Part shown: positions 10,483-37,147 of the stretch, piece by piece
How positions within the stretch are numbered: position 1 is the first letter of the stretch
Layout of the letters: each line of letters opens with the position of its first letter
IMG/VR virus record: IMGVR_UViG_3300005719_000009
Coordinates: 12,125-76,124 of that record
DNA length: 64,000 bases
Source of the DNA: a virus
Taxonomy: Duplodnaviria > Caudoviricetes
Strand: one strand, 5' to 3'
Program-made: the position numbers and the translations under genes
Notes under the pieces: model-generated
Databases searched by the model: none
The model's input: only the letters and a program-made list of their open reading frames with translations
Told to the model about the DNA's origin: nothing

Positions 10483-11019
10483 ATGAAACATTTAATCTTT
10501 GCCCTATTAATGGGGATCGGTATTGCCAGCATGGCACAGAACGGTGGCCAATATCCCGAAAACAATACAGCCAAACTTGAATACATGGGAGGCGGTAAAA
10601 TTAAGATCATAAACAAACAATCTTTCCCATGCGACTTCAAAGTGAACGACAGCAAGACTGAGAGCGATATAACAATCCCAGCCAATTCGAACTACCTGTA
10701 TCAACTGCCTCCTGACTTATTAACAAATATCCACTTTAAGGTTAAGTGCGTTACAAACAATGGCATTACTGACTTAGGATGGATTGAACTATTCTTAACG
10801 TCACTACCATTGAAGTTTGTTAGCTTCAGCACAACGAGAATATCAGACACAGAGTTCTGGGTTGACTTTGAAGTAGCAGAAGTAACAAACGTGAAACAAT
10901 TCAATATAAAAGCATCCTTAGATGCAAAGGTGTGGAAGGTTATTACTATCTTATTCCCTGATGAAATACAACCTAATCGTAAATATTCGGTAAAAATAAA
11001 TCTAAGTCAATGGAAATGA
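10483..11019 (+). CDS. secreted protein with host-like Ig-type 'LPV/LPL..F' module
   Basis: signal peptide MKHLIFALLMGIGIASMA then Q; C-terminal LPLKFVSF...FNIKASLDAKVW resembles modules of Bacteroidota T9SS cargo. Confidence 0.65.
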   Translation: MKHLIFALLMGIGIASMAQNGGQYPENNTAKLEYMGGGKIKIINKQSFPCDFKVNDSKTESDITIPANSNYLYQLPPDLLTNIHFKVKCVTNNGITDLGWIELFLTSLPLKFVSFSTTRISDTEFWVDFEVAEVTNVKQFNIKASLDAKVWKVITILFPDEIQPNRKYSVKINLSQWK

Positions 11020-11722: not shown

Positions 11723-12205
11723 ATGCATACAGAAAAACACTTTCAATTCGCCACACTCCTACAACAACACACCGGCATCGTATACAGCACCATATCGAAA
11801 TATGGGCACGAAGGCATCAGCCATGAGGACTTGTTTCAGGAGGTAGCCCTTAGAGCGTGGCAGGCTTATGATAGATTCAGGGGTGATGCAAAATTTAGCA
11901 CATGGCTGGCATATATCACCCGTAACACATGCGTTGATGCGTGGAGAAGATTAAAAACAACCGTTCAAACTGTAGCCTTTAGCAACTGTTTGTTTGAGGT
12001 AGATTTAGCAGACAATACTGAGGAATATCAAGAGCCGGTTTCGCTACCCACAATCGACTCCTTTACTACTATTGAAAAAACAACCCTTAACTACATTTTA
12101 GAGGGTTTAAGCTATAAACAAATAAGCGCTCTTACAGGAGAACCAACTAATAGAATCGCAGTGAGAATGCACCGGATCAAAAAAGAATTTGCAAAGCACT
12201 TATAA
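11723..12205 (+). CDS. ECF-type sigma-70 factor
   Basis: region 2 DLFQEVALRAWQAYDRFRGDAKFSTWL..ITRN..VD; region 4 GLSYKQISALTG...AVRMHRIKK. Confidence 0.9.
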   Translation: MHTEKHFQFATLLQQHTGIVYSTISKYGHEGISHEDLFQEVALRAWQAYDRFRGDAKFSTWLAYITRNTCVDAWRRLKTTVQTVAFSNCLFEVDLADNTEEYQEPVSLPTIDSFTTIEKTTLNYILEGLSYKQISALTGEPTNRIAVRMHRIKKEFAKHL

Positions 12206-13580: not shown

Positions 13581-14351
13581 TTACTTACGCCTTCTTAATG
13601 ACAGCGGTAAATTCATTTGTGTTTCAACCATTGTCCCATGTGTTCCCCAATAGCCCTTTACTCCATATTGCACCTTATACTTAGTTTGATACATTAAACC
13701 AACGCCAGCCATTTCAGGAAATGGCGACCATAAAACGCCCCATGAAAAATAAAGCTGCCCCTTAACGCCGGAGGCATTAACCGCATCCTTACTTATGTCC
13801 TTACTATCCTGAAGACTTTGGCCTAATTTTGATTTCTCTTGATCTTGTTGCGCTATCCTGTCTGTCTGTAGTTTTTCTTTAATACGTAACGAAAGTTTAA
13901 GCTGCTCATTATCTGACTTATATTGTTGCACTAATTTCTGCCCATTAGAAAGTTCAGTAAAACAACCATTACAATCAACTATAAATTCGTTTGGGACATA
14001 TGTATGTGACGTATCTGTATCCGGCGTGATTTCTTTATGCTTTGCAAGTAGCAAACTAATTCTTATATTCGCCACATCCAATTCATTGTTGATTCTTTCA
14101 ACCTGATTTTCTTTTATTTCTAATTGCCCATTAGCGACTTCCAGAGCGACTTCATAGTCTCTTTTGTTTGCCGCAAACTCAACGCTATCCCTTTTTGTTT
14201 TAGCAATAAGCGAATCATTTTTCGTTTTTAACTCATTACTTTCTTTAAAAGCATATTTTGCATTACCGCAACCTCTAAATAGCATAAATATCAATAAGGC
14301 CACACCAACAATTGATATTATAATAAGAACCGGACTAATTTTTATACTCAT
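13581..14351 (-). CDS. membrane-anchored coiled-coil protein, spanin-like
   Basis: N-terminal TM ending FRGC, long coiled coil, beta-rich aromatic C-terminus. Confidence 0.55.
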   Translation of the reverse strand: MSIKISPVLIIISIVGVALLIFMLFRGCGNAKYAFKESNELKTKNDSLIAKTKRDSVEFAANKRDYEVALEVANGQLEIKENQVERINNELDVANIRISLLLAKHKEITPDTDTSHTYVPNEFIVDCNGCFTELSNGQKLVQQYKSDNEQLKLSLRIKEKLQTDRIAQQDQEKSKLGQSLQDSKDISKDAVNASGVKGQLYFSWGVLWSPFPEMAGVGLMYQTKYKVQYGVKGYWGTHGTMVETQMNLPLSLRRRK

Positions 14352-14385
14352 ATTGTCATTGTTTTAACACGGCCAAATATAATAT

Positions 14386-14835
14386 CTATTGTTTGAATAT
14401 GTGTTTCTTGTTAGAAAATCCTATCAACATTGCACTAATAGTGCTTACGGTTAAAACACACATATATAAGATATAAGATGTTTTATAATTGTATATAAAC
14501 ATCGACAAATCAAATACATGATATGCAAAATAAATCAGCCACACTAAATACAAGCGAAAACTATACCGTTGCCATTGAAGATAATTTTCATAGTTTATAG
14601 AATACGCCTGACATGCGCCTGCATAAAGTATAGATGTTAGCAACATGCCGTCTTCGATCATTTTGAAATACCACAAAATATTCAGATCGGGCACTGAAAA
14701 TCCCGGTTTAATAAACCACCCGGAAACTATATAATTTACAGACTTTGGGCTTGCCCACATTATCAATGTATGTAGTTCTGTTAACAGGTGTGCGCCTATT
14801 AACAGAACTATTATTGTATAGTATCTTTTCTTCAT
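14386..14835 (-). CDS. multi-pass membrane protein
   Basis: about four hydrophobic segments. Confidence 0.65.
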   Translation of the reverse strand: MKKRYYTIIVLLIGAHLLTELHTLIMWASPKSVNYIVSGWFIKPGFSVPDLNILWYFKMIEDGMLLTSILYAGACQAYSINYENYLQWQRYSFRLYLVWLIYFAYHVFDLSMFIYNYKTSYILYMCVLTVSTISAMLIGFSNKKHIFKQ

Positions 14836-15029
14836 GGTGGAGTTCCGGGGCCATGTGGGGGATTGCTTCCTCCTTCACTATTGATACTTTGTCTTTCTAA
14901 CTTAACACACGCTTCACGGTGCAATACCTCTCGCGCCCGTTCCATTATAAGCCACGCGTCTGCATAAGTAATACCATTTAATGAAGCAATCAATTCTCTC
15001 GCTTTTTGTAAAATTTGATCTGAATCCAT
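14832..15029 (-). CDS. hypothetical protein
   Basis: 65 aa; ATGA overlap with the next gene. Confidence 0.55.
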   Translation of the reverse strand: MDSDQILQKARELIASLNGITYADAWLIMERAREVLHREACVKLERQSINSEGGSNPPHGPGTPP

Positions 15030-20419: not shown

Positions 20420-20938
20420 TTATTGATTTTTAACCTTAATCATTATTTTCTTTTGCCCATCCGTAGGGGCAACATTAACATCCATCGGCACTCTTCCTGC
20501 TAATTGTTGATTAATTTGACTAATAGAGGTTCTGAATCCGGGGCCAACGCCATACCCAAGTGCCTTTGTTTTTGAAAGAACATCTTTGATATATGGATCA
20601 CTTGACCCAATGTCATAAAAGGCGTTTAATTTTTCCTCTACAGGAAGTTTCTGCACATCCGGTCTGGTGTTAAATATATAAGCGTGGTTCATTAATTTTT
20701 GCGCAGCATCATTGCCAATCAAACGAGTTAAGCTACCGTATATCCCCGCCTTATCTTCAGGCTTTAATATATTCCCCTTGCCTACCAACTCCATCAACCT
20801 ATCCCTAATGTCTAAATCCCTATCAATGGTTGTTCCTCCGGCAGCATGATATGTAGCTCCTTTTACGCCCCCTCCGCTATTTATTGGATCACCAGTTGCG
20901 GGATTAGCTATTCTCAATACTATTTTTTTGTTTTCCAT
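20420..20938 (-). CDS. hypothetical protein (virion module)
   Basis: 172 aa, 1-nt overlap with the large gene. Confidence 0.65.
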   Translation of the reverse strand: MENKKIVLRIANPATGDPINSGGGVKGATYHAAGGTTIDRDLDIRDRLMELVGKGNILKPEDKAGIYGSLTRLIGNDAAQKLMNHAYIFNTRPDVQKLPVEEKLNAFYDIGSSDPYIKDVLSKTKALGYGVGPGFRTSISQINQQLAGRVPMDVNVAPTDGQKKIMIKVKNQ

Positions 20939-23900
20939 TATTGGTGTGGTTTATGTGGTTTACTTATTTTTGTTTTTGATACTTTTGTTGGCTTCGTACC
21001 GGAGTTTACACTTCCACCTCCACCACTTTCATACGTTGTTGTACCAACGCCCACAAAGCTCGGCAATCCAGTATACAGTAGCGACATTGGGCCTTGCTCC
21101 TGCCACGCGTCTTTCACGTCGTTTATGATCATTGGTGTTAAGTGTTCCTTTACCTCGTCCGTCAGGTTAACATCTGCACCTACTGCTGTTCTTCCAGATA
21201 GAACATCTAATCCTATTGATGGAACTGGTGCTAATTTGCCACGGAAAAAACTAAACAACTTATCGGCTTTTGTATGTTGACCAAACCCACTGCCAAGCGG
21301 AACGATATTCCCATTGCTTTTCTTTTCCACCCCAGACATTAATTGTGAAGCAACCCTTATGTATTGCTGAAACCCGCCCCATATGTCCCATCTGGTATCT
21401 CCTGCATGTATTTTCCCGAAATCAGGGCTATTTGGGTTAGCCTCAACTTTAACGCCCGGAATCATTGCAAACAAAGTTAACGTTGTCGTGCCAGCCATAA
21501 TCAAATTAGCCATATCATTCAACGCCATTAATCTCACCTCTTTAGGCAATGACGCATACCATACTGGATTTAGTAGATTTATTCTTGATGCTATCAATCT
21601 GGGTGAGAAGAACATACTATTTAAAACTTTTGCCGCAGGCTCTAAATCTCCCAACTCGCCTCTACCAGTAGCTGCATTTATAAATGCCCCCAGACCCTCG
21701 TATACATCCGGCCTCGTTTGTGGAGTTATACCTCGATCCGCCAAATCCTTAGCATACATAGTAAATACATCAACTCTTAACTTATTCAAATACGCCACAT
21801 AAGCACGTTCACTTTTAGAAATAAGACCAGCCCCCGGAATTAATTTCTTGCCTCCCACTTTAAGGGTTTCTCCTATTATTGGTATTTTCTCAGCAAGATT
21901 CGTCATAAATGCTTCCTCTTTCGCTGACAAATGTAAATTGTTTGGATCGGCTATGTATAATCCGAATTTAGATAAAACATTTTTATAGTAATCACTTTCC
22001 TTTAAATCATAAAGCCACTTATCAAACCTATCTGGATTAATTGCCTGTCTAATGCTTTCCGCAAACGCCTTAGCGGCCATAAGCGGATGCGAAGTAGTAA
22101 GCACCAGCCCCTGCCTTAAAGGTGCTGATAAATCCACAGAAGCCATAAGCGTACGCGGGATGCCCAAAAATTCCCTAAATCGATCCCATCCCTTTTGCCC
22201 TCTTGTTCTGTTATTATACGCATTCTGCGCTATCTGCTTTTGCCATTCAATTTTCTTTTTAACATAAGCCTCTTTTAGCGTTTGTGCTTCCTTATCAAGC
22301 TCAATAGTGTTTTTTTCTTCTGGTTCAAAATCACCGGCATCTATTTTTCGCTGTATTTCCTCTGTCATTTTTTTATACCTTGACTTCAATGCTATCAATT
22401 TCTCTGACTCTGCTTTCTCTGGCCTGCCTTGCAATTCTTTTATTTGTTTTCGCAAATCCTCTATTTCCGCACTACGAAGCAATCTCGCTCGATTGCTTTT
22501 GGGTTGCGGCCCAGCTTTCAAAGCTTCCAGCCTATTTATATACTTTGCCTGAAGGTGTATTTCATAAGCCTTTTCTTGGAGGTCGTTTTTTGTTTGCTTT
22601 TTTGAATATTCCCCTGCTATTATATCGTGAATGTTTTTTTCACTTATCCCTTCAACTACGTCCTTCAGTTGCTCATGTATGTTATTTATTATTTCAGGCA
22701 ATTTCTCAATCCCCTCTTCAATTAAACTCTTAACCAATTTAGCCACATGAGGCGCTATTGCCGCCAACTGCGCAGTGCCGGGCAGGCTTATCATTGCTCC
22801 CTTTTCTCCCTTCGCTACTTTAAGCAAATCATCCCTCATTTTTGCTATAATATCTTTCCGTTCATTTACATAGTCTTCGTGAGTTCTTGATTTTGACGTT
22901 TGCTTCTTCTCAGATACCGCCTTCTTTAAAACACCTTCCGCCTTTAGTTTTGCATTTTCTGCGGCAAGCTTTTCAACTCTTGCTCGATACGCGTCCCTGC
23001 TTGCCTGCATATCATCATATCTTGCCTTCACTCCTGCCGCCTGTTCTTCCGTCAATGGAACACCTAAATTTGCGTCTTTTGCCTGCTGGAAAAACGACGA
23101 AAGCGTTTCATCATTAAGCATAAACATTCTTCTGGCTCTAAATGCGGCCCCTTCTTCCGATCCGGCCTTGTCGCTGGCCCGGCTAAGTCGTTCAATTGCA
23201 TCAAGCGTAGAATTAAATTCAGGAGTATTAACTTCTAAATTTTTCAACTTCACGTTTAACGCTCCCACCATTTTTGCAAACGCTACCTGCTCTGTATCTG
23301 TCATTGATTTGTCTCTGCCAGATAATAGCCTATCGGCTTTACCTTCAAAATCATACCCGTCTCTTATTAGGCTGTCGGCTTCTCTTTCAAGCGTTATATC
23401 GTCTTTTGTTGCGCGTGGTATCCTGTCAGTAAGCCCTAACTCACTGTATATTTTTTCAGTATCAGCATGAGCCAATCTACCAACATCCCCATCTTCTGGA
23501 TTAAATGGCAAATCAAACATATTTGGAGGTATCCCATCGCTCATTTTTGTTTCACTCTGACCAGCACTTTCTCCTTCGGTTGCACCTTGCGCTCCGGCAA
23601 CTTCACCTGAATCGGGTATTCCTTCGCCCATCTGCTGGCTATCTCCGGGTGTTTCGCCCATAGAAACTTCCTCTGGGCCTCCGATTTGAACGGCATTTTC
23701 TTCTGGTTTTGTTTTAAATTCTTCAAAATCTATATCTTCGGCATTGATTTTTTTGCCCTTATTCTTATTTAATAACACATTAGCCCATTTATCAAAATCT
23801 CCATTTTTTATATCAGCAATATCAACATGCGTATATTTGGATATTTCACTTTCACTCATGACCCCTTGCTTATACTGCCTATATAAAATTCTTTTTTCTT

Positions 23901-26022
23901 CAGCCGACAATACTTTAGAAGCCTTTAGCATGCCCAAAACATCCACTTCTTGTTGATTAATTTGCTCTGTGTAGGATTGCGGATATAATTCTTTTGCCTT
24001 ATTCACTATCTCTTCGCCAAATGTCTCAATAGTTTGATTTAATGAATTTGGATCAGCAGCCTGTTCTGCTATATCTTTAAAATACCCCTCCAATTCCTTT
24101 TCGGTAGCATTCCTTAATGTATCAGTAACGAACCCCTCAATATTTCCTTTCTTAAATTCCTTATCAACGACTTTTTGCAATTCGCCTCGATCAGCCCCTT
24201 TCGATATATTTACAATTTCCTCATCCAGTTTTTTTATATCCTCTTTAATATCCGGATGATATGCTTTGTCTACTCTTTCAAGTTCTTCTTGAAGCAAATT
24301 CCTTTCTTTTATTTTTGCCTGAACCTTCAGGCGATCTAATTCAGGAATGTCTTCCGGAATGGAAGCATTTAATTGTTTTTGATCTCTTATTGCCTTTTGT
24401 GCTGCTTGTAACTCCTCAGTACTTATATACCCTGTCTCTTGGAGATTATTAAACTCCTGATCTATCACGTGCTCCGGCAATTTAGCCACACTGTGCACTA
24501 TTTCATTGTATGTTGATTTTTTCAACAACTTAGGCGCTTTCGCAAGCATAGCAATACCTGCCGTCATAGTCACACCGCCTACCAGTTGAGGCAAAGTTCC
24601 TTCCATTGTATCAACAGGTATCCCAGCTTTTTGCGACATTAAATTCTTAACAACTTGCCCGCTGGCCCCTATTGCGCCAACTCCTAACCCTTCCATTATT
24701 TTCTTTGCGCCCTCTTCCCCAATTTGCTTCAACCCGCTACGAACCGAATTTTGTAGCAATGGAGTTGCTATATTAGTTGGCTTCAATGCCGCCTCGCCGC
24801 CTACAAAACCCATTGCGGCCCCGGTTGCAGCATCTACTGTTGCCTGTTTTTCGGCTAACTCCTTCGCTTGCTGATAAGCGGTGTAATCGGCCATTTCAGG
24901 ATGCGTCCTTTTTATTTCAGCATAATTCATTTGCAACGCAGAAGCATAACCTAACTTATACATTTCATGCGCAGATATCCCAGACGCAGCAGCAGCCCCG
25001 GCGATAGGAGTGCCTAAGTAATTAGCTATCGCTCCCCCAACAATTGGCTTTATGGGTTGACCGCCTATCATAGCCCCGGCCTCTCCTGAAGTTCCAACAG
25101 GCACATCAATCGGGGTGTCCGGGTCTTGCTCTTTTATTTTACTATTTAGTTCTGATATTATTGCCGATTCGTTATCCGTTTTAGTGTACAATTCGTAATC
25201 CTTAAACAATTCATTCTTCTGCCTAAACCCTAAAGCCAAACTCCCCAAAAAACCATGTGGGGTATACAATACCCCTCTCAATGGGTCATAGTCAACATCA
25301 CCTTTTATTATCTTGTCTACATTTTTACTTATTTTATTTTCCTTATCAGGATTATCTTGTCGATCTAACCTGTATATGTCAGCTTTTAGTCTATTTGCTT
25401 CTGATGGATTTGTTTTGCTTAAATCTTTAACCCGTTGATTGATGGCAGTTCTTACCATGCCGGGGTTTTCTGCCATTTCTGCTTTAAACTGCTGTATCTC
25501 ATCATTGGTCACAGTAGTTTGCGGCCTTAGCTTACTTTCAATTTCAGCAACCTGCGGGCTTACCGGCATACCCTCTTTTGGATTACCCCCCAACAAAATG
25601 CTTTTCGATCTCCCCTCAATATCTTTTTTGTTATTATATATAAGATTGCCAATATTCCTATCAATATCTTGTATATGCGCATTAACTCTATCAGAGGCCT
25701 GTGCCGTCTTTATTGTATGATCATCGATAGGCACCACATTCGCCTCTACCATCGGCTTGTATTTCTGACTTGGCACATTCAACCAATCTGTCATTGGCTT
25801 GAATTGGACTTGCGTTTGCTCTTGCTGTTTTGGCTTAGGCTGCTCCTGAACAGCTTCTTCTGTTACAACAGGATCATATGTTGCCTTTGGGTTGAAAGTT
25901 GGTTTTTTACCTTTAGGCGTAGGCGTATCCTGAACGGCTTCGTAAGAAGCATTCGGATCAAACGATGGCTTTTCGCCAGTAGAAGGAAATGTTCTGCTAC
26001 TCATACTGCCCAGTTTTTTCAT
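20938..26022 (-). CDS. large internal virion/DNA-ejection protein (polyvalent-protein-like C-terminus)
   Basis: 1694 aa, helical, Gly/Ala hydrophobic stretches; C-terminal WDIWGGFQQY...RGKLAP resembles large polyvalent proteins; podovirus-like position. Confidence 0.7.
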   Translation of the reverse strand: MKKLGSMSSRTFPSTGEKPSFDPNASYEAVQDTPTPKGKKPTFNPKATYDPVVTEEAVQEQPKPKQQEQTQVQFKPMTDWLNVPSQKYKPMVEANVVPIDDHTIKTAQASDRVNAHIQDIDRNIGNLIYNNKKDIEGRSKSILLGGNPKEGMPVSPQVAEIESKLRPQTTVTNDEIQQFKAEMAENPGMVRTAINQRVKDLSKTNPSEANRLKADIYRLDRQDNPDKENKISKNVDKIIKGDVDYDPLRGVLYTPHGFLGSLALGFRQKNELFKDYELYTKTDNESAIISELNSKIKEQDPDTPIDVPVGTSGEAGAMIGGQPIKPIVGGAIANYLGTPIAGAAAASGISAHEMYKLGYASALQMNYAEIKRTHPEMADYTAYQQAKELAEKQATVDAATGAAMGFVGGEAALKPTNIATPLLQNSVRSGLKQIGEEGAKKIMEGLGVGAIGASGQVVKNLMSQKAGIPVDTMEGTLPQLVGGVTMTAGIAMLAKAPKLLKKSTYNEIVHSVAKLPEHVIDQEFNNLQETGYISTEELQAAQKAIRDQKQLNASIPEDIPELDRLKVQAKIKERNLLQEELERVDKAYHPDIKEDIKKLDEEIVNISKGADRGELQKVVDKEFKKGNIEGFVTDTLRNATEKELEGYFKDIAEQAADPNSLNQTIETFGEEIVNKAKELYPQSYTEQINQQEVDVLGMLKASKVLSAEEKRILYRQYKQGVMSESEISKYTHVDIADIKNGDFDKWANVLLNKNKGKKINAEDIDFEEFKTKPEENAVQIGGPEEVSMGETPGDSQQMGEGIPDSGEVAGAQGATEGESAGQSETKMSDGIPPNMFDLPFNPEDGDVGRLAHADTEKIYSELGLTDRIPRATKDDITLEREADSLIRDGYDFEGKADRLLSGRDKSMTDTEQVAFAKMVGALNVKLKNLEVNTPEFNSTLDAIERLSRASDKAGSEEGAAFRARRMFMLNDETLSSFFQQAKDANLGVPLTEEQAAGVKARYDDMQASRDAYRARVEKLAAENAKLKAEGVLKKAVSEKKQTSKSRTHEDYVNERKDIIAKMRDDLLKVAKGEKGAMISLPGTAQLAAIAPHVAKLVKSLIEEGIEKLPEIINNIHEQLKDVVEGISEKNIHDIIAGEYSKKQTKNDLQEKAYEIHLQAKYINRLEALKAGPQPKSNRARLLRSAEIEDLRKQIKELQGRPEKAESEKLIALKSRYKKMTEEIQRKIDAGDFEPEEKNTIELDKEAQTLKEAYVKKKIEWQKQIAQNAYNNRTRGQKGWDRFREFLGIPRTLMASVDLSAPLRQGLVLTTSHPLMAAKAFAESIRQAINPDRFDKWLYDLKESDYYKNVLSKFGLYIADPNNLHLSAKEEAFMTNLAEKIPIIGETLKVGGKKLIPGAGLISKSERAYVAYLNKLRVDVFTMYAKDLADRGITPQTRPDVYEGLGAFINAATGRGELGDLEPAAKVLNSMFFSPRLIASRINLLNPVWYASLPKEVRLMALNDMANLIMAGTTTLTLFAMIPGVKVEANPNSPDFGKIHAGDTRWDIWGGFQQYIRVASQLMSGVEKKSNGNIVPLGSGFGQHTKADKLFSFFRGKLAPVPSIGLDVLSGRTAVGADVNLTDEVKEHLTPMIINDVKDAWQEQGPMSLLYTGLPSFVGVGTTTYESGGGGSVNSGTKPTKVSKTKISKPHKPHQ
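23541..23696 (-). CDS. overprinted 51-aa MPFKS-type small protein inside the ejection gene
   Basis: alternative frame MPFKSEAQRKFLWAKHPEIASRWAKEYP...; A-rich leader; stop overlaps an in-frame ATG of the host gene. Confidence 0.7.
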   Translation of the reverse strand: MPFKSEAQRKFLWAKHPEIASRWAKEYPIQVKLPERKVQPKEKVLVRVKQK

Positions 26023-28269: not shown

Positions 28270-28662
28270 TTAAATACTTAAAAGTGTTATTAAATTATTC
28301 GACTTTTCCACCCTCATCCCAAATCTTTTTAGAAAATTTATGGCCCTTGTATTAACATTGAAAAGGAAACATTCAAAATGCTCCCCCACGTTGTCTTTAA
28401 TAAATTCAGAAAAAAGAATAAGATTCTCCTTGTTTCTAAATTTCGGATTTAGACAGAAACTTATCAACAGTCGTTCCGAATAAAATACATACCCAATTTC
28501 CGAATTTACAAAAATACATTTCCTATCACGTGAATGTTCAACTATTTTTCTATACACATCTTCAGCCGCCTCTTCTATAGTTGTGACCATACTTGTCGGG
28601 TCGTAGTACCTTAAAAGATCAACATCTTCTTTGAAATGATTGTATATATCTTCTTTCATCAT
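28270..28662 (-). CDS. GNAT-fold virion assembly protein (T7 gp13-like position)
   Basis: NTRAINFLKRFGM acetyltransferase-like motif; between tail tube and ejection genes; ATGA overlap at 28659-28662. Confidence 0.6.
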   Translation of the reverse strand: MMKEDIYNHFKEDVDLLRYYDPTSMVTTIEEAAEDVYRKIVEHSRDRKCIFVNSEIGYVFYSERLLISFCLNPKFRNKENLILFSEFIKDNVGEHFECFLFNVNTRAINFLKRFGMRVEKSNNLITLLSI

Positions 28663-31600
28663 AAATTTCTCGGATCGGCCTTCCACGTTACATATGGCGC
28701 GTATAAATACGAGTCAGTATTTCCAGAATAAGACAACTTGACTATGATAATATTCCCCGTCATATAATCGCCTTCCCATAATGCAACGGCTTCGTCCGAC
28801 ATGCTATTTTGATCTCTATTAAAGGCGGCATATCTACTTGGGTTTTCAAGAATATCAAAATCCTCTTCCATAATCAGGCTTTCCTGCTGAACCAACGTTT
28901 GACTATTTACCCTATTAGTTGCAATATCCCCTTTCGTTGGCGCGGCCCATGTTTTATTACTCTGATAAGAAATGGCATTGAATACCTTCTTTACCGCCTC
29001 CGATTCATTAAACACGACCGTTATGCTTGGCGTATATTGTACTCCAAAAAAATTAGAAACAAATGCATCACTACTTTGCTCCCACAATTCGCCATTCTTA
29101 AACGCATATAATTTGTTTTCTGCACAAATTATACTATCTGCATCAATGTCTATTTTCGAATAAAATGAATTATATGATTCTTCGAAAGCGAAAACCTCAC
29201 CCGGAGCATCTTGCGTACCTTGCGCCAAAAGCAAATATTCGGCAACATTATCCGGTCTTATATTAAACGTTCCAAGCACCTTTTGTTTACCTCCAAATTC
29301 GTAATCTCCCGGATTCAAGTATTTTGGCAGATTGTCAGAAGCCCATGTTTTCACTTTATACAGCTCCGAGAGGTCAGTCATGCCATCCCTCGACAGCCTC
29401 CATATAACGTTTTTAATTGGGTCAACCCCATAATAAACAAAGCCACTTTGCACAACGCTCATCGGCAAAGACCCAACCCCATATTCTCCTGCATAATATT
29501 GGACATTATTTTTCGTAATTATACCATCAGTAGTTACAACTTGATTATTGCCATCATTACTCGCGATATACTTAGAATATATTCCAGTTTGCCCACATTT
29601 TCGTTCTTGGAAAAACGTAAGCACCCTATCCCATACACTCATACGCATAATGCCTCCCTTAGATCGATCCACTGTGTCAAAATTCTCCGGGTAAAACCGG
29701 CTTGTTTGATTGACGTTAGTATCCTCCTGATATGGCATAGACCATCTGTGCATTGTAGGGTATGTTACCCGGTTTGCATTTTCATCAAATATCCACTCCC
29801 TCCCATTTGAGTTTACCGCAGACTGATAATAATCGGAAAAATTCGGGTCAATGCATTTTTGACTTATAACATGGTCAATGGTAAATGTTAATTCTGATGC
29901 CGAAAACGTTATGCTTCTTTTTTTGCTCCCTACGGATGCAGCAATTAAAAATATCCTGTCGTTTTCTAATGTAATAGAACTATTAATTGTAAACGTATGC
30001 GCCCCTTCAGAGGCATCAAACGCCCCTACTAAATTCAATTGATCAGTATATATATTCTGCAAATAAATTCGCCATGCATCACCCCCCGGATTCACTTCCC
30101 CAAAAGTCAGCGTTATTGTTCCTGAAATTTTAAATGTTGTAGAAGCTACTGCCTTTAAAAACCACCGGGAGTCCGCTGGCGGATCAAAGCTGCCGCCTAA
30201 ATTTGCTAAAGGAGCGCTTTGCGCCGTTACATTAGAATCAGTATATGTTGACCCGGTAAAATTCAATCCTATTAAAAACGTATCGCTTTGGCTCCCAGTG
30301 CTGCCTTGCGTTACAGAATATCTATATACATTCCCTGTTTGTATAGCTCTGTTTTTAATGTAAAAATCCCCTTTAAAAAATTCGTACGTAGCCGGTGTGG
30401 CATAATTCGATGTTTGATTTTGAAGCATGCCTTGATGAAATCTATTGCTTAGTGTCGGATTGGCAATGGCATATCTCTGACCAAATTCATAATACAAATT
30501 AAGATTATTTGCTACCGGGCGCGCTGGCGTATAAATCTCAATAAAATAATTATCGTACCCAGTTCCAAAATCAAAAGACCCGTCTGTTGGCGGTAGTATG
30601 ATTTTAATAAATTGACCGGATTTCGCTTCCCCATTTATTGCCGGGTTTATTACTGATGCGACCACTTCATAGTCCCGTACATCGCCATATATATTCGCTG
30701 TTGACCCGTCTCCATTATAACGCTTCATTACCTTTACACGGTCCCCCGGCGTGAACCCATAGGCAAGTGGACTTCCGGGATTTAAATTAACAAACGCATT
30801 CAATGACTCAATACTGAAATATGCGTATTTCACAATCCCCGTTATATCTACTGTATCCTTAAATGTTCTATCTGAAATCCATTGAACAAAAGTTTGCTTA
30901 CTAAGGTCTTTTGTCCGAACCCATTGAAAATAATAAGCCCAATCAGGTGGCTGATGATAAATACTGGCCAAAAAACGCTGAATAAACGGCGACGTAGGAG
31001 ATGCCTCCAAATACGCCAAAGATGTGACAGAAAAACCAGATGTATATACGGCACCATTTGTCCTGTATTTTTCATCAAAATACACAATCGCATAGCCATG
31101 CCTGCTCGACCAATCATACGCGGGGAAAGATGTGTTGATAGTCGAATTGTATGAATAATCTGACAATATATTAGTTCTTGCCAAACTAATTCCGGCCTTA
31201 GAAATATACAAATCATTAGGCCCACTACTTATTATGGTGTACCCTTGCGAAAGAGCGTCTACCCTTAACCCCTCAATCACCGCTGCGGCATCATCCCCGG
31301 TAGAAAGAGAATACGATACCGTTGATCCGTTTGTTAAATAAACCACATAATCATCAAGAGAAGACGATGGGGATTGAACTGTGCCCCTCACAACTATATG
31401 TATAACCCCCGTCCCAAACCCACTTTTCCCGTCTTGATTTGCTATCAAATTACTGAACAATACCCCGCTGTAGTACGGCGTCACATCGGATTGCGTTATG
31501 TTGCTTGTGTTGCCATTAAATGAAAAATCCGTTAAATTAGGGTACCCCTCTGTTACGTTACCGTAATCAAGCGTGTTGCCGTTTAATAGGGCTTGCGCTA

Positions 31601-32558
31601 TACAAGCCTGTGGCACGTAGTCCTGCAACTGATCGCTTTCCGCAATTAAAATATTATTATACCCTTTGTCATTATAGAATAGATATGTTGCTATGTCATT
31701 ATCCGGTATCCCTTCTGCGTCTTTATCAATTGAGGCTATAACATACCAATCACTCATTACATTCCCGAAAGAATGTGCTGCCATTAATTCCACCTTTCTC
31801 ACATTAGCTGGCCCTGTTTGATATGTTATTGCAATCCTACAATTTTTTGTAGGATCGGCATCGGTAGTCTGATCAAATGCATTGTATGGTATTGGCATTT
31901 CACTTTGACTACTTGTTATTGACTTATCGTGATCGTCGAAATCCCACCTTGTTTTAAAGCGAAATATTTTTTTTCTTAAATTATTTACAATACTTGATGC
32001 ATCATTTTCATAAACAACGTACGGCGGTATGTCTGCTGGCTCTTTTGCAACATCTATATAAGATCGCTGTATACTACCATACCCAGAAGCTAATGCCCGA
32101 TCTATGTTTATTTTAGTCGGCCTCCCAATAGAATCTACAAAATACAATATATCCCCCTGCGTACTATCCCCATATATAACATCGATATTGTACAAGATAT
32201 TAGCCGTAAACGCAAGAGGATCGCCGGTTGTATTTATACCTACCTCTATTAACCTTTGAAATGTCTTGGGGATGGTGTTATATACATAAATACCGTGATT
32301 GCCACTTGAATTATAGTTAAAAACATAAATACGCTTTGATATTGTATCGTACTTGTTTCCTATGTTTTTATTCACCCCAACTATAGGAAGTAAAGGGTTG
32401 GCCAAAAGTAAGTTGCCAGCCTTAACCTTTACGCGCCTGTTTGGGGGCACCCCATCAAACTCAACATTCCTTGCATCTCGATGCAATACCTTCCCTATCG
32501 ATTCCAGTGGAGAATCCAAATCAAGTGTGCCTGCTAATTGTTTTAATTCCGTTGGCAT
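28659..32558 (-). CDS. tail tubular/nozzle (stabilisation) protein
   Basis: 1299 aa, beta-rich; N- and C-terminal motifs (DARNV, YGVDP, FFGVQY) typical of podovirus nozzle proteins. Confidence 0.7.
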   Translation of the reverse strand: MPTELKQLAGTLDLDSPLESIGKVLHRDARNVEFDGVPPNRRVKVKAGNLLLANPLLPIVGVNKNIGNKYDTISKRIYVFNYNSSGNHGIYVYNTIPKTFQRLIEVGINTTGDPLAFTANILYNIDVIYGDSTQGDILYFVDSIGRPTKINIDRALASGYGSIQRSYIDVAKEPADIPPYVVYENDASSIVNNLRKKIFRFKTRWDFDDHDKSITSSQSEMPIPYNAFDQTTDADPTKNCRIAITYQTGPANVRKVELMAAHSFGNVMSDWYVIASIDKDAEGIPDNDIATYLFYNDKGYNNILIAESDQLQDYVPQACIAQALLNGNTLDYGNVTEGYPNLTDFSFNGNTSNITQSDVTPYYSGVLFSNLIANQDGKSGFGTGVIHIVVRGTVQSPSSSLDDYVVYLTNGSTVSYSLSTGDDAAAVIEGLRVDALSQGYTIISSGPNDLYISKAGISLARTNILSDYSYNSTINTSFPAYDWSSRHGYAIVYFDEKYRTNGAVYTSGFSVTSLAYLEASPTSPFIQRFLASIYHQPPDWAYYFQWVRTKDLSKQTFVQWISDRTFKDTVDITGIVKYAYFSIESLNAFVNLNPGSPLAYGFTPGDRVKVMKRYNGDGSTANIYGDVRDYEVVASVINPAINGEAKSGQFIKIILPPTDGSFDFGTGYDNYFIEIYTPARPVANNLNLYYEFGQRYAIANPTLSNRFHQGMLQNQTSNYATPATYEFFKGDFYIKNRAIQTGNVYRYSVTQGSTGSQSDTFLIGLNFTGSTYTDSNVTAQSAPLANLGGSFDPPADSRWFLKAVASTTFKISGTITLTFGEVNPGGDAWRIYLQNIYTDQLNLVGAFDASEGAHTFTINSSITLENDRIFLIAASVGSKKRSITFSASELTFTIDHVISQKCIDPNFSDYYQSAVNSNGREWIFDENANRVTYPTMHRWSMPYQEDTNVNQTSRFYPENFDTVDRSKGGIMRMSVWDRVLTFFQERKCGQTGIYSKYIASNDGNNQVVTTDGIITKNNVQYYAGEYGVGSLPMSVVQSGFVYYGVDPIKNVIWRLSRDGMTDLSELYKVKTWASDNLPKYLNPGDYEFGGKQKVLGTFNIRPDNVAEYLLLAQGTQDAPGEVFAFEESYNSFYSKIDIDADSIICAENKLYAFKNGELWEQSSDAFVSNFFGVQYTPSITVVFNESEAVKKVFNAISYQSNKTWAAPTKGDIATNRVNSQTLVQQESLIMEEDFDILENPSRYAAFNRDQNSMSDEAVALWEGDYMTGNIIIVKLSYSGNTDSYLYAPYVTWKADPRNL

Positions 32559-35740: not shown

Positions 35741-37147
35741 TTAAGAAATCAAACCTTTTAATATAGAAAATTGCTCGGCTGCTGTTACACGTGATCCAAC
35801 ATATGCGATTTGTTCATATTTGTTAGATGCCTCTGTTGTTTTTGTAGGCTTTGTATAACCTAAATCCCAACTGTAAATACGCTGTGAAGTTGGTATATCC
35901 GGGTTTTGCTGATATACCCATTGCATATAAGGACGCGTAGAACTATCTTTTGCATCCTGTGTCATGCCCTGTGGAACGCCAAACCCGAAGTTTGCCCGAT
36001 AATCGCCTACCGTTGGAGTATACCCGAAAACCGCCTGTGCGGTAAACCCTTTGTAACGGTGAAAGTGGAAGTCAAAAGTATCAGTAGAGAAACTCTTGAA
36101 GCCGTAGCTTACAGAAGCTTCTGCACTTTGCCCTACGCTGCCATAACTTATTGCTCCGTTACGATAAATACCAAACAGCAAGTTGTTTATATCCTGCCGT
36201 TGCTTTAAATCCTGAAGGAAGTGGTATTCACGTGGGCCACCATTCGCATCTAATACATTGGTGAAATTCTGAAAATCGCCAATCATGAAGTTATTTGTCA
36301 CATAATCCACTTCAGAGCCACGTGCAATTACATCAGGCAAAACCCCCACCGTACCAACGGTGCCGGAAATGTTCGCGTAAGGCACCCCTTCCATTACAGC
36401 ATCTTCAATATTCAGCATCATTTGGTCATTCATGGTCTTAACCGCCAAATATGGCAGGTAATAATTACCACCACCAAAATCAATCTGAGTTTTGTTCATG
36501 CCAGCCAAGTCGCTCGCCTTAACAGAAGCACGTGCAACTGTAGCAGTGTTGTCATAACGATACAACTTCTGCTGCTGTGTGCCCTGACTGTCGGACGCCT
36601 CCCCAGCTAACTGATTACCGAAGGTTTCCAGCCCCTCACCAGCCAATACAGTTGTGCCGGTTCCAGAGTGCACAGTATATGCCCCCATTGGGGTAAGCTC
36701 CAATACAAAGGCACTTGTGGTTCGCGTTACATTGGTAACCTTAAACTTCAAACCATTTGAGCGGAATTTTACCGTCTGGTTCAAAAGGAACGGCGATTGT
36801 GTCCCGGCAGTTCCATCATTATAGGATTGGGGGCTTTTAAGTGTCACATTCACAGCAGCACCACTTGCTCCCTGCGCAACAGTTGTAGCCACTAAACCAG
36901 AACCATAAGGACGGCCCTTTTCAAAATGCGAAAAAGTATTAGTAGTTGTATTTGTTTCCTCGATATTGGTTCTGCCCAAAATCTCCATTGCCAACATGTA
37001 CGAGTTGTTACCGTACTTAGCAATAAGACCCGGAATATAATCAGGGATAACAAAATTCAAGTCATTAAAAATACCGGTTGTTAGCCCGAGTGGATAACCC
37101 ACCGGGCCGGGCTGACCGGTTGCGCCTCTTACTATAGCACTTGGCAT
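35741..37147 (-). CDS. major capsid protein
   Basis: 468 aa after a scaffold-like gene, followed by a hairpin; residue pattern of crAss-related Bacteroidota phage MCPs (recalled). Confidence 0.8.
   Translation of the reverse strand: MPSAIVRGATGQPGPVGYPLGLTTGIFNDLNFVIPDYIPGLIAKYGNNSYMLAMEILGRTNIEETNTTTNTFSHFEKGRPYGSGLVATTVAQGASGAAVNVTLKSPQSYNDGTAGTQSPFLLNQTVKFRSNGLKFKVTNVTRTTSAFVLELTPMGAYTVHSGTGTTVLAGEGLETFGNQLAGEASDSQGTQQQKLYRYDNTATVARASVKASDLAGMNKTQIDFGGGNYYLPYLAVKTMNDQMMLNIEDAVMEGVPYANISGTVGTVGVLPDVIARGSEVDYVTNNFMIGDFQNFTNVLDANGGPREYHFLQDLKQRQDINNLLFGIYRNGAISYGSVGQSAEASVSYGFKSFSTDTFDFHFHRYKGFTAQAVFGYTPTVGDYRANFGFGVPQGMTQDAKDSSTRPYMQWVYQQNPDIPTSQRIYSWDLGYTKPTKTTEASNKYEQIAYVGSRVTAAEQFSILKGLIS

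Follow-up and report, generated by a model that had tools for sequence, protein, structure and literature searches.

A putative small gene of the MPFKS family nested within a 1694-codon open reading frame of a metagenomic phage

Introduction

Whether a short segment of a very large phage gene can carry a second protein-coding gene in a shifted frame is the question raised by one locus in a 64,000-nucleotide stretch of DNA from a virus of the Caudoviricetes. This stretch, referred to here as the window, comprises positions 12,125 to 76,124 of IMG/VR virus record IMGVR_UViG_3300005719_000009. On its minus strand, a 1694-codon open reading frame (ORF; 20938-26022) encloses a much shorter ORF of 51 codons, which shares its strand but is shifted to the +1 frame. 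Some 150 bases of the large gene very probably carry two readings, one of which specifies a linker of the large protein and the other a separate 51-residue protein of a widespread family, here termed MPFKS after its first residues. Comparison with diverged relatives finds the nested gene intact and conserved and both of the frames constrained, and from these comparisons its initiation, origin and function may be inferred.

The nested ORF occupies 23541-23696 on the minus strand, beginning with an ATG at 23696-23694 and ending with a TGA at 23543-23541. Its offset from the start of the large ORF, (26022-23696) mod 3 = 1, places it in the +1 frame. Codons 1-27 (23616-23696, minus strand) encode a conserved core, and codons 28-51 (23544-23615, minus strand) a variable basic tail. 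The ATG is preceded by an A-rich leader (23697-23720, minus strand) that lacks a Shine-Dalgarno motif. Over this interval the large frame specifies codons 776-826 (23545-23697, minus strand), an acidic linker of low complexity that is rich in Gly, Glu, Ala, Gln and Ser and contains 11 Gly, 8 Glu and a single Lys. The linker is followed by the ATG of Met827 (23542-23544, minus strand), a candidate restart codon that overlaps the nested TGA as ATGA. The original prediction, made from the letters of the window, had described the 51-residue shifted frame, the A-rich leader, the acidic linker and the ATGA at Met827, and all of these elements are correct. Two more +1 ORFs of 40-45 codons lie inside the same large gene, so that an open frame is by itself uninformative, and the evidence for a gene comes instead from the family match.

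The MPFKS small-protein family

Against 5.8e9 proteins, the nested peptide retrieves 48 small homologues with a best expectation value (E) of 9.4e-13, a database search that had been suggested with the original prediction. Membership of the family is defined by a profile (A1) built in this analysis, which scores the nested copy at 82.7 bits (E 3e-24 within its own genome). The nested copy possesses all nine invariant residues of the family (M1, P2, F3, K4, S5, H16, P17, I19 and A20) along with the four that are nearly invariant (Q8, R9, E18 and W23). A search with the profile returns 3572 representative clusters at E<=1e-3 and 689 at E<=1e-10. These clusters and the 48 small matches agree with the original statement that free-standing homologues recur in many uncultured phages. 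Approximately half of the best 150 profile matches are proteins of 40-100 amino acids (aa). In many other matches the module forms the first ~50 residues of proteins of 270-1050 aa, and such in-frame fusions often carry DUF6321 or glycine zippers, although none of the top 150 hits joins the peptide in frame to a C-terminal module of the type found in the window. Because of its homology to this small-protein family, the nested ORF is regarded as a genuine gene and not a chance ORF.

The family partly overlaps phrog_1375, a group annotated as of unknown function that likewise consists of small basic phage proteins (40-90 aa). At a threshold of E<=0.01, this group is matched by 23 of 49 homologues, the best at 9.4e-6, and one relative, L006, has a nested copy that reaches 7.6e-8. 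A Pfam search with the nested peptide returned no family at E<=1, DUF3008 (PF11450) included, and the latter is a weak lead as a language-model neighbour of the peptide at 0.82. Comparison of the peptide profile with solved structures likewise gave no meaningful match. An AlphaFold2 model of the nested protein predicts two short helices in the core, at residues 6-15 and 17-26, with a predicted local distance difference test score (pLDDT) of 76-90 for the core. The tail, in which 8 Lys or Arg are found against 2 Asp or Glu, is predicted to be disordered. It ends in an alternating hydrophobic and basic run, and runs judged by eye from the listed sequences to be similar close most of the nested copies in relatives of the large gene.

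Homologues in cultured phages were found only as gene 48 of Streptomyces phage FlowerPower and its equivalents in three related Streptomyces phages. As taken from the FlowerPower annotation, this gene (L102; NC_048706.1, 27334-27552) encodes a 72-aa hypothetical protein and lies between "peptidase" and holin genes with overlapping ends. Another free-standing homologue (L119:2679-2813), from a phage with a P22-type portal, overlaps both of its neighbours, which encode a small helix-turn-helix protein at the position of the terminase small subunit and the large terminase. Among the nested copies, a divergent peptide subtype is found at L009:3038-3193 and in L127 (about 10747-10920), where the HPEIA helix is replaced by a GVNV..EWNKESKGL segment. 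As it is common to two phages with otherwise distant large genes, this GVNV type is a real subfamily. A 42-codon +1 ORF within a further homologue of the large gene (L007:2522-2650) also starts with MP and contains a SKQAQKYIWG stretch that recalls the MPFKS core. It has no family match, and may be either a diverged MPFKS copy or a chance ORF.

Conservation of the nested arrangement

Six relatives of the large gene (L003, L006, L009, L012, L127 and L130), whose large proteins are 33-49% identical to that of the window, contain a nested MPFKS copy at the same site, in the +1 frame and with an ATG start. The fate of the alternative frame in relatives had been named beforehand as a check on the nested gene, and in these six it is kept open. 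Nested copies are also found outside this family of large genes. The 80 viral loci most similar to the peptide, a sample picked by similarity to the window copy and not a population estimate, contain 40 distinct nested copies, every one of them in the +1 frame of a longer ORF on the same strand. At about half of the 80 loci the family is present only in nested form.

The hosts of these nested copies belong to at least five unrelated gene families, including that of the window. Three of the others consist of ORFs that range from about 1300 to more than 3100 codons. Within these groups, C-terminal matches to long PHROG families were obtained for the host ORFs of L027 and L032, with a family named DarB-like antirestriction as the best match of L027. 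A further family encodes a ~400-aa protein, X, which occupies the scaffold position between the portal and a capsid-like gene in AT-rich marine phages; it has no detectable relation to the 399-aa scaffold-position protein of the window. It had been predicted from the window alone that other large virion or polyvalent genes might hide the same small gene in linkers of the NA(I/V)Q type, and nested copies were indeed found there. Gene calls are listed for two of the relatives, and in both only the large gene is called. A literature search found no description of the MPFKS family or of its nesting.

Constraint on the two reading frames

In the nested copies, nucleotide diversity at peptide codon positions 1, 2 and 3 amounts to 0.22, 0.21 and 0.37, respectively, the third position of the peptide being the first of the large frame. 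Identity is correspondingly higher in the peptide than in the large frame, both in the nested copies overall (0.70 versus 0.53) and among the seven members of the large-gene family of the window (0.48 versus 0.34). A strain of ~95% identity from another soil run permits a comparison at closer range. Outside the overlap, 28 of its 32 listed differences fall at third positions of the large frame, compared with three of the eight listed inside it (Fisher p = 0.008), and in the peptide core all three listed differences are synonymous for the peptide and non-synonymous for the large frame. The codon-phase diversity and these three peptide-synonymous differences bear out the original prediction that, in the core, it is the hidden frame that is constrained. 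Contigs from three further sequencing runs show no listed differences from the window where they cover it.

These patterns bear on the alternative that the nested ORF is the unexpressed relic of a swallowed small gene, kept only by constraint on the large frame. The absence of the gene from some relatives would be in keeping with such a relic. The large frame, however, is a freely varying linker of low complexity that is less conserved than the peptide in both of the above comparisons, and substitutions in the core follow the codon phase of the peptide. Moreover, the start codon, length and invariant residues survive across relatives in which the flanks are only 33-49% identical, and a mere relic is accordingly most improbable.

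The large frame, for its part, stays open because of which synonymous codons the nested gene uses. In none of 43 non-nested copies is the large frame open across the peptide. When synonymous codons were resampled according to each genome's own codon usage, the probability of an open large frame was 0.0037 for the window and, for ten other nested copies, 0.0002-0.014 in nine and 0.17 in the tenth (L046). The third codon provides an example, as Phe3 written as TTT would give TAA in the large frame, whereas nested copies read Gln there, which requires TTC. Phe codons in the genome of the window number 359 for TTT versus 125 for TTC. By these comparisons of sequence, both frames are maintained by selection.

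The same values speak to the possibility that the 1694-codon ORF is in fact two genes with the small gene between them, the large frame being open by chance or through an assembly error. The site does coincide with a module boundary and a recombination junction, as discussed below. Against this stand the probability of chance opening given above, the open frame in seven family members from independent assemblies, and the three further runs that match the window. A separate C-terminal gene would also have no conserved start codon, and in L004, a 42% identical relative, the N- and C-terminal parts are again fused in one ORF, of 1814 codons. Two separate genes are hence barely credible, and a single large gene read in two frames over its linker is preferred.

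Proposed expression of the nested gene

Every nested copy has an ATG at Met1 of the family, and upstream of this codon the +1 frame stays open for no more than 4-14 codons. In the window, the leader of this ATG has 13 A in its last 20 nucleotides, which is typical of gene starts in this genome. Shine-Dalgarno motifs accompany only 5 of its 52 genes, and its leaders are A-rich (48% A). Such gene starts would be expected of a Bacteroidota phage, and this phage probably infects members of that phylum. In genomes with at least 50% G+C, four of five nested copies show GGAG-type (Shine-Dalgarno-like) motifs at -9 to -14. Of the possible routes to the peptide, independent initiation has the best support: translation would begin at its own ATG on the mRNA of the large gene, with the A-rich leader acting as the usual start signal of this Shine-Dalgarno-less phage. 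Among the sequencing runs found to match this DNA, none is of RNA.

The original prediction went further in proposing that translation, having terminated at the peptide TGA, restarts at Met827, such that the locus would yield an 868-aa C-terminal isoform as a third product. The ATGA overlap on which this model draws is real, and Met827 stands just upstream of the start of the conserved C-terminal module (about residue 843). Additionally, the C-terminal module and the nested gene are passed on together, as expected of a gene pair that was once coupled, and ATGA coupling occurs elsewhere, for example at a free-standing homologue in L001. Yet an ATG at or beside the nested stop is found in 0 of the six relatives, in which the nested genes end with TAA or TAG followed by non-start codons, and only L012 has a Met within about 10 codons of this stop. 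The stop-start overlap is not conserved, the ATGA being confined to the window, and an 868-aa isoform is unlikely. Since the small gene and the module travel as one block, the ATGA of the window may be a relic of an older coupling, in which the small gene was followed by a gene for the C-terminal module.

Programmed frameshifting would be another means of expression, a -1 shift at the end of the nested ORF extending the peptide into the C-terminal module, or a +1 shift out of the large frame adding a peptide tail to the N-terminal half. Large proteins to which the peptide is fused in frame are common, and at L047 the peptide shares its frame with the host-protein body. Potential slippery sites are also present in some copies, with A_AAA_AAG directly before the nested stop of L006 and G_GGT_TTT shared by eight closely related marine copies. 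Canonical slippery heptamers are nevertheless not enriched in nested copies (13 of 43, compared with 11 of 30 free-standing copies), and they are absent from the window, L003, L012, L127 and L130. Being neither conserved nor enriched, they render frameshift products unlikely. The ATG at Met1 in all nested copies is a further difficulty, and closure of the +1 frame so close upstream leaves little room for a conserved +1 shift site. Frameshifting is therefore very unlikely, and independent initiation is retained as the preferred reading.

Origin of the overlap

Similarity among members of the large-gene family begins at the nested gene (L006 and L009) or just after it (L005, L007, L008 and L011). 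The ~95% identical strain diverges from the window 14 nucleotides upstream of the nested ATG, marking a mosaic junction near 23710. An abrupt change is also seen between L127 and L130, which carry different peptide subtypes: their DNA is 90-100% identical for about 630 nucleotides before the nested gene and 55% identical from its first codon. Along the large gene, these two alternate between ~99% and ~50% DNA identity.

In the relative L004, a different small-protein family fills the same slot, in the same +1 frame and with the same start context (L004:5423-5575; also in L108). Its members are small and basic, start with MPxxYE and contain the motif KAAxIYN. A word-index search with the L004 nested ORF gave no match, unlike a scan of viral contigs, in which ten relatives were found, mostly free-standing and with Shine-Dalgarno motifs. 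A KAAxIYN-type copy (L117:3001-3168) also lies inside an ORF of 1110 codons. Free-standing MPFKS genes, in four look-ups, follow the end of the upstream gene by 1-3 nucleotides, and in three of these the upstream gene is large (1154-2612 aa). At L047 (5790-7044), from a marine phage, the peptide is preceded by AAGGAGG and is in frame with the ~300-residue body of protein X, whose usual N-terminal extension is here encoded on its own, by a 76-codon ORF overlapping peptide codons 1-29. This locus appears to be the opposite resolution of the frames. Together, the similarity breakpoints, the drop in identity between L127 and L130, the exchanged family of L004, the layout of the free-standing genes and the L047 locus indicate that the small gene is probably older than the linker that overlies it, and that the site is a likely junction at which modules and small-gene cassettes are exchanged.

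The large gene and its phage

The genome to which the window belongs, a 76,124-bp virus record rated 100% complete by CheckV, comes from metagenomes of the rhizosphere and of soil. Its products include a portal, a large terminase, and GroEL and GroES-like proteins. A 1299-aa protein (28659-32558, minus strand) contains a crAss_MUZ_C domain (PF25729; 51.3 bits against a cut-off of 27), and a crAss-like tail is thus present in a phage of only 76 kb. The large gene lies three genes downstream of this muzzle-domain gene. In crAss001, cargo proteins are encoded at the corresponding position relative to the muzzle gene (PMC10172136), and from its gene position a role as a cargo or ejection protein of the crAss-like virion module is plausible.

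The large protein comprises a variable N-terminal part (residues 1-775; 23698-26022, minus strand) and a conserved C-terminal module from about residue 843 (20941-23496, minus strand), separated by the linker region. No family was found for it in Pfam or PHROGs, no solved chain matches it in sequence, and the profile of its C-terminal domain likewise gave no meaningful match to solved chains. The fold model of this domain is of low confidence (mean pLDDT 54), and a scan of metagenome contigs with the large-frame region found no relative. Because matches in Pfam, PHROGs and the PDB are lacking, the name "ejection protein" used in the original prediction is positional, supported by the place of the gene behind the muzzle-domain gene.

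The capsid-like protein of the window (35741-37147) is ~87% identical to that of L125 and L126, contigs that overlap L127 and L130. The large gene of L127 and L130, by contrast, is mosaic and only 33% identical to that of the window, and the large gene hence evolves much faster than the capsid-like gene and yet keeps its nested gene. Just downstream of the large gene, L130 carries a gene (14150-14905) with NUMOD1 and NUMOD3 domains and a faint GIY-YIG hit, as in homing endonucleases, which is absent at that place from L127 and the window.

Interpretation and significance

In the proposed account, the large frame would supply a flexible acidic linker between the variable N-terminal part and the conserved C-terminal module, while the +1 frame would supply a separate 51-residue protein, with a two-helix core and a basic tail, from an old and widespread phage family. 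The overlap may have arisen by "reverse overprinting", in which the small gene came first and the upstream gene was then fused to the downstream module by way of the -1 frame of the small gene. As for its role, the peptide may work alongside the large cargo proteins of the virion, serving them as a small adaptor or as a partner that binds DNA, which is the weakest step of the account. The links to virion modules, the N-terminal fusions, the helical core and the basic tail suggest an adaptor or partner of cargo proteins, or else a DNA-binding internal protein, a guess that is about half as likely to be right as wrong.

A broader scheme would combine the growth of cargo and polyvalent genes by reverse overprinting, a slot for the exchange of cassettes, and the use of MPFKS proteins as portable tethering adaptors. 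As a joint proposal it is somewhat less likely than not to hold. Under this scheme, the linker would be a de novo frame and the older small gene would survive inside the fused gene. The cassettes exchanged would be those of the MPFKS type, of its GVNV-containing subtype (L009 and L127) and of the unrelated KAAxIYN type (L004). The MPFKS adaptor, whether made by itself or as the first ~50 residues of cargo proteins, would serve to target or tether internal proteins or DNA in the capsid.

Several points weigh against this interpretation. The sequences in the comparative sets are related, such that the counts given above are not those of independent events, and the strain comparison concerns eight listed differences in the overlap, with nine more on that contig outside the listing. 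The window copy scores only E 0.16 against the phrog_1375 model, which is not significant. The functional guess, moreover, is drawn only from gene neighbourhood, fusions and composition. Finally, the distribution of the gene offers no argument for its function. The nested copy is the sole MPFKS copy in the 76-kb genome of the window and also in the complete genome of L012. A complementary distribution, in which relatives without a nested copy would carry a free-standing one, was rejected, as such relatives carry none: the L004 genome (95% complete) has no MPFKS copy, and neither do four incomplete relatives. The MPFKS gene is thus dispensable in this lineage.

Gene callers pass over genes that lie within a longer ORF on the same strand, and the annotations of this phage and of all relatives examined consequently lack the MPFKS protein. 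The locus would also reverse the usual direction of overprinting, an old and widespread gene here lying inside a younger reading frame. It illustrates a concrete way in which neighbouring genes may be combined into giant virion genes while the small gene between them is retained. Experimentally, single silent changes can switch off either frame separately, and the association of a large family with virion cargo genes narrows where to look for its role.

Comparison with known systems

Among nested phage genes, the spanins of phage lambda provide a familiar case, in which Rz contains Rz1 in its +1 frame and neither product is dispensable. The MPFKS arrangement is alike in that a small gene lies wholly inside a larger one, on the same strand, in the +1 frame and with its own start. 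The likeness extends to the variety of forms found across phages, which are embedded, overlapping (as at L047), separate as free-standing genes, or fused as N-terminal domains. Unlike Rz1, however, MPFKS proteins are without a lipobox, a signal sequence or a lysis context, and the large genes that host them, of virion or cargo type, fall into at least five unrelated families. The nested MPFKS gene is also old and widespread, and the part of the large gene that overlaps it is a linker of low complexity.

Phages and conjugative elements also encode polyvalent proteins, multidomain giants that expand through the fusion of modules (Iyer et al. 2017, PMC5512222). Two hosts of nested MPFKS copies resemble them in matching long PHROG families at their C-termini, although no domain known from polyvalent proteins is recognised in the large protein of the window. 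When that study was searched by word, neither frameshifts nor overlapping genes came up. The cargo proteins gp45 and gp46 of crAss001 (Bayfield et al. 2023, PMC10172136) offer a comparison by gene order, as the large gene of the window follows the crAss_MUZ_C gene by three genes. Its product differs in having no sequence match to any solved chain, and its status as cargo is positional.

The classical overprinted phage genes are those of phiX174, where E lies within D, B within A, and K is likewise overprinted (PMC8227390). The present locus shares with them the encoding of two proteins by one stretch of DNA and the codon-phase signature of a dominant frame. In the phiX174 type, however, it is the nested frame that arose de novo and is taxonomically restricted, whereas here the nested family is thousands strong and the frame that contains it appears to be the novel one.

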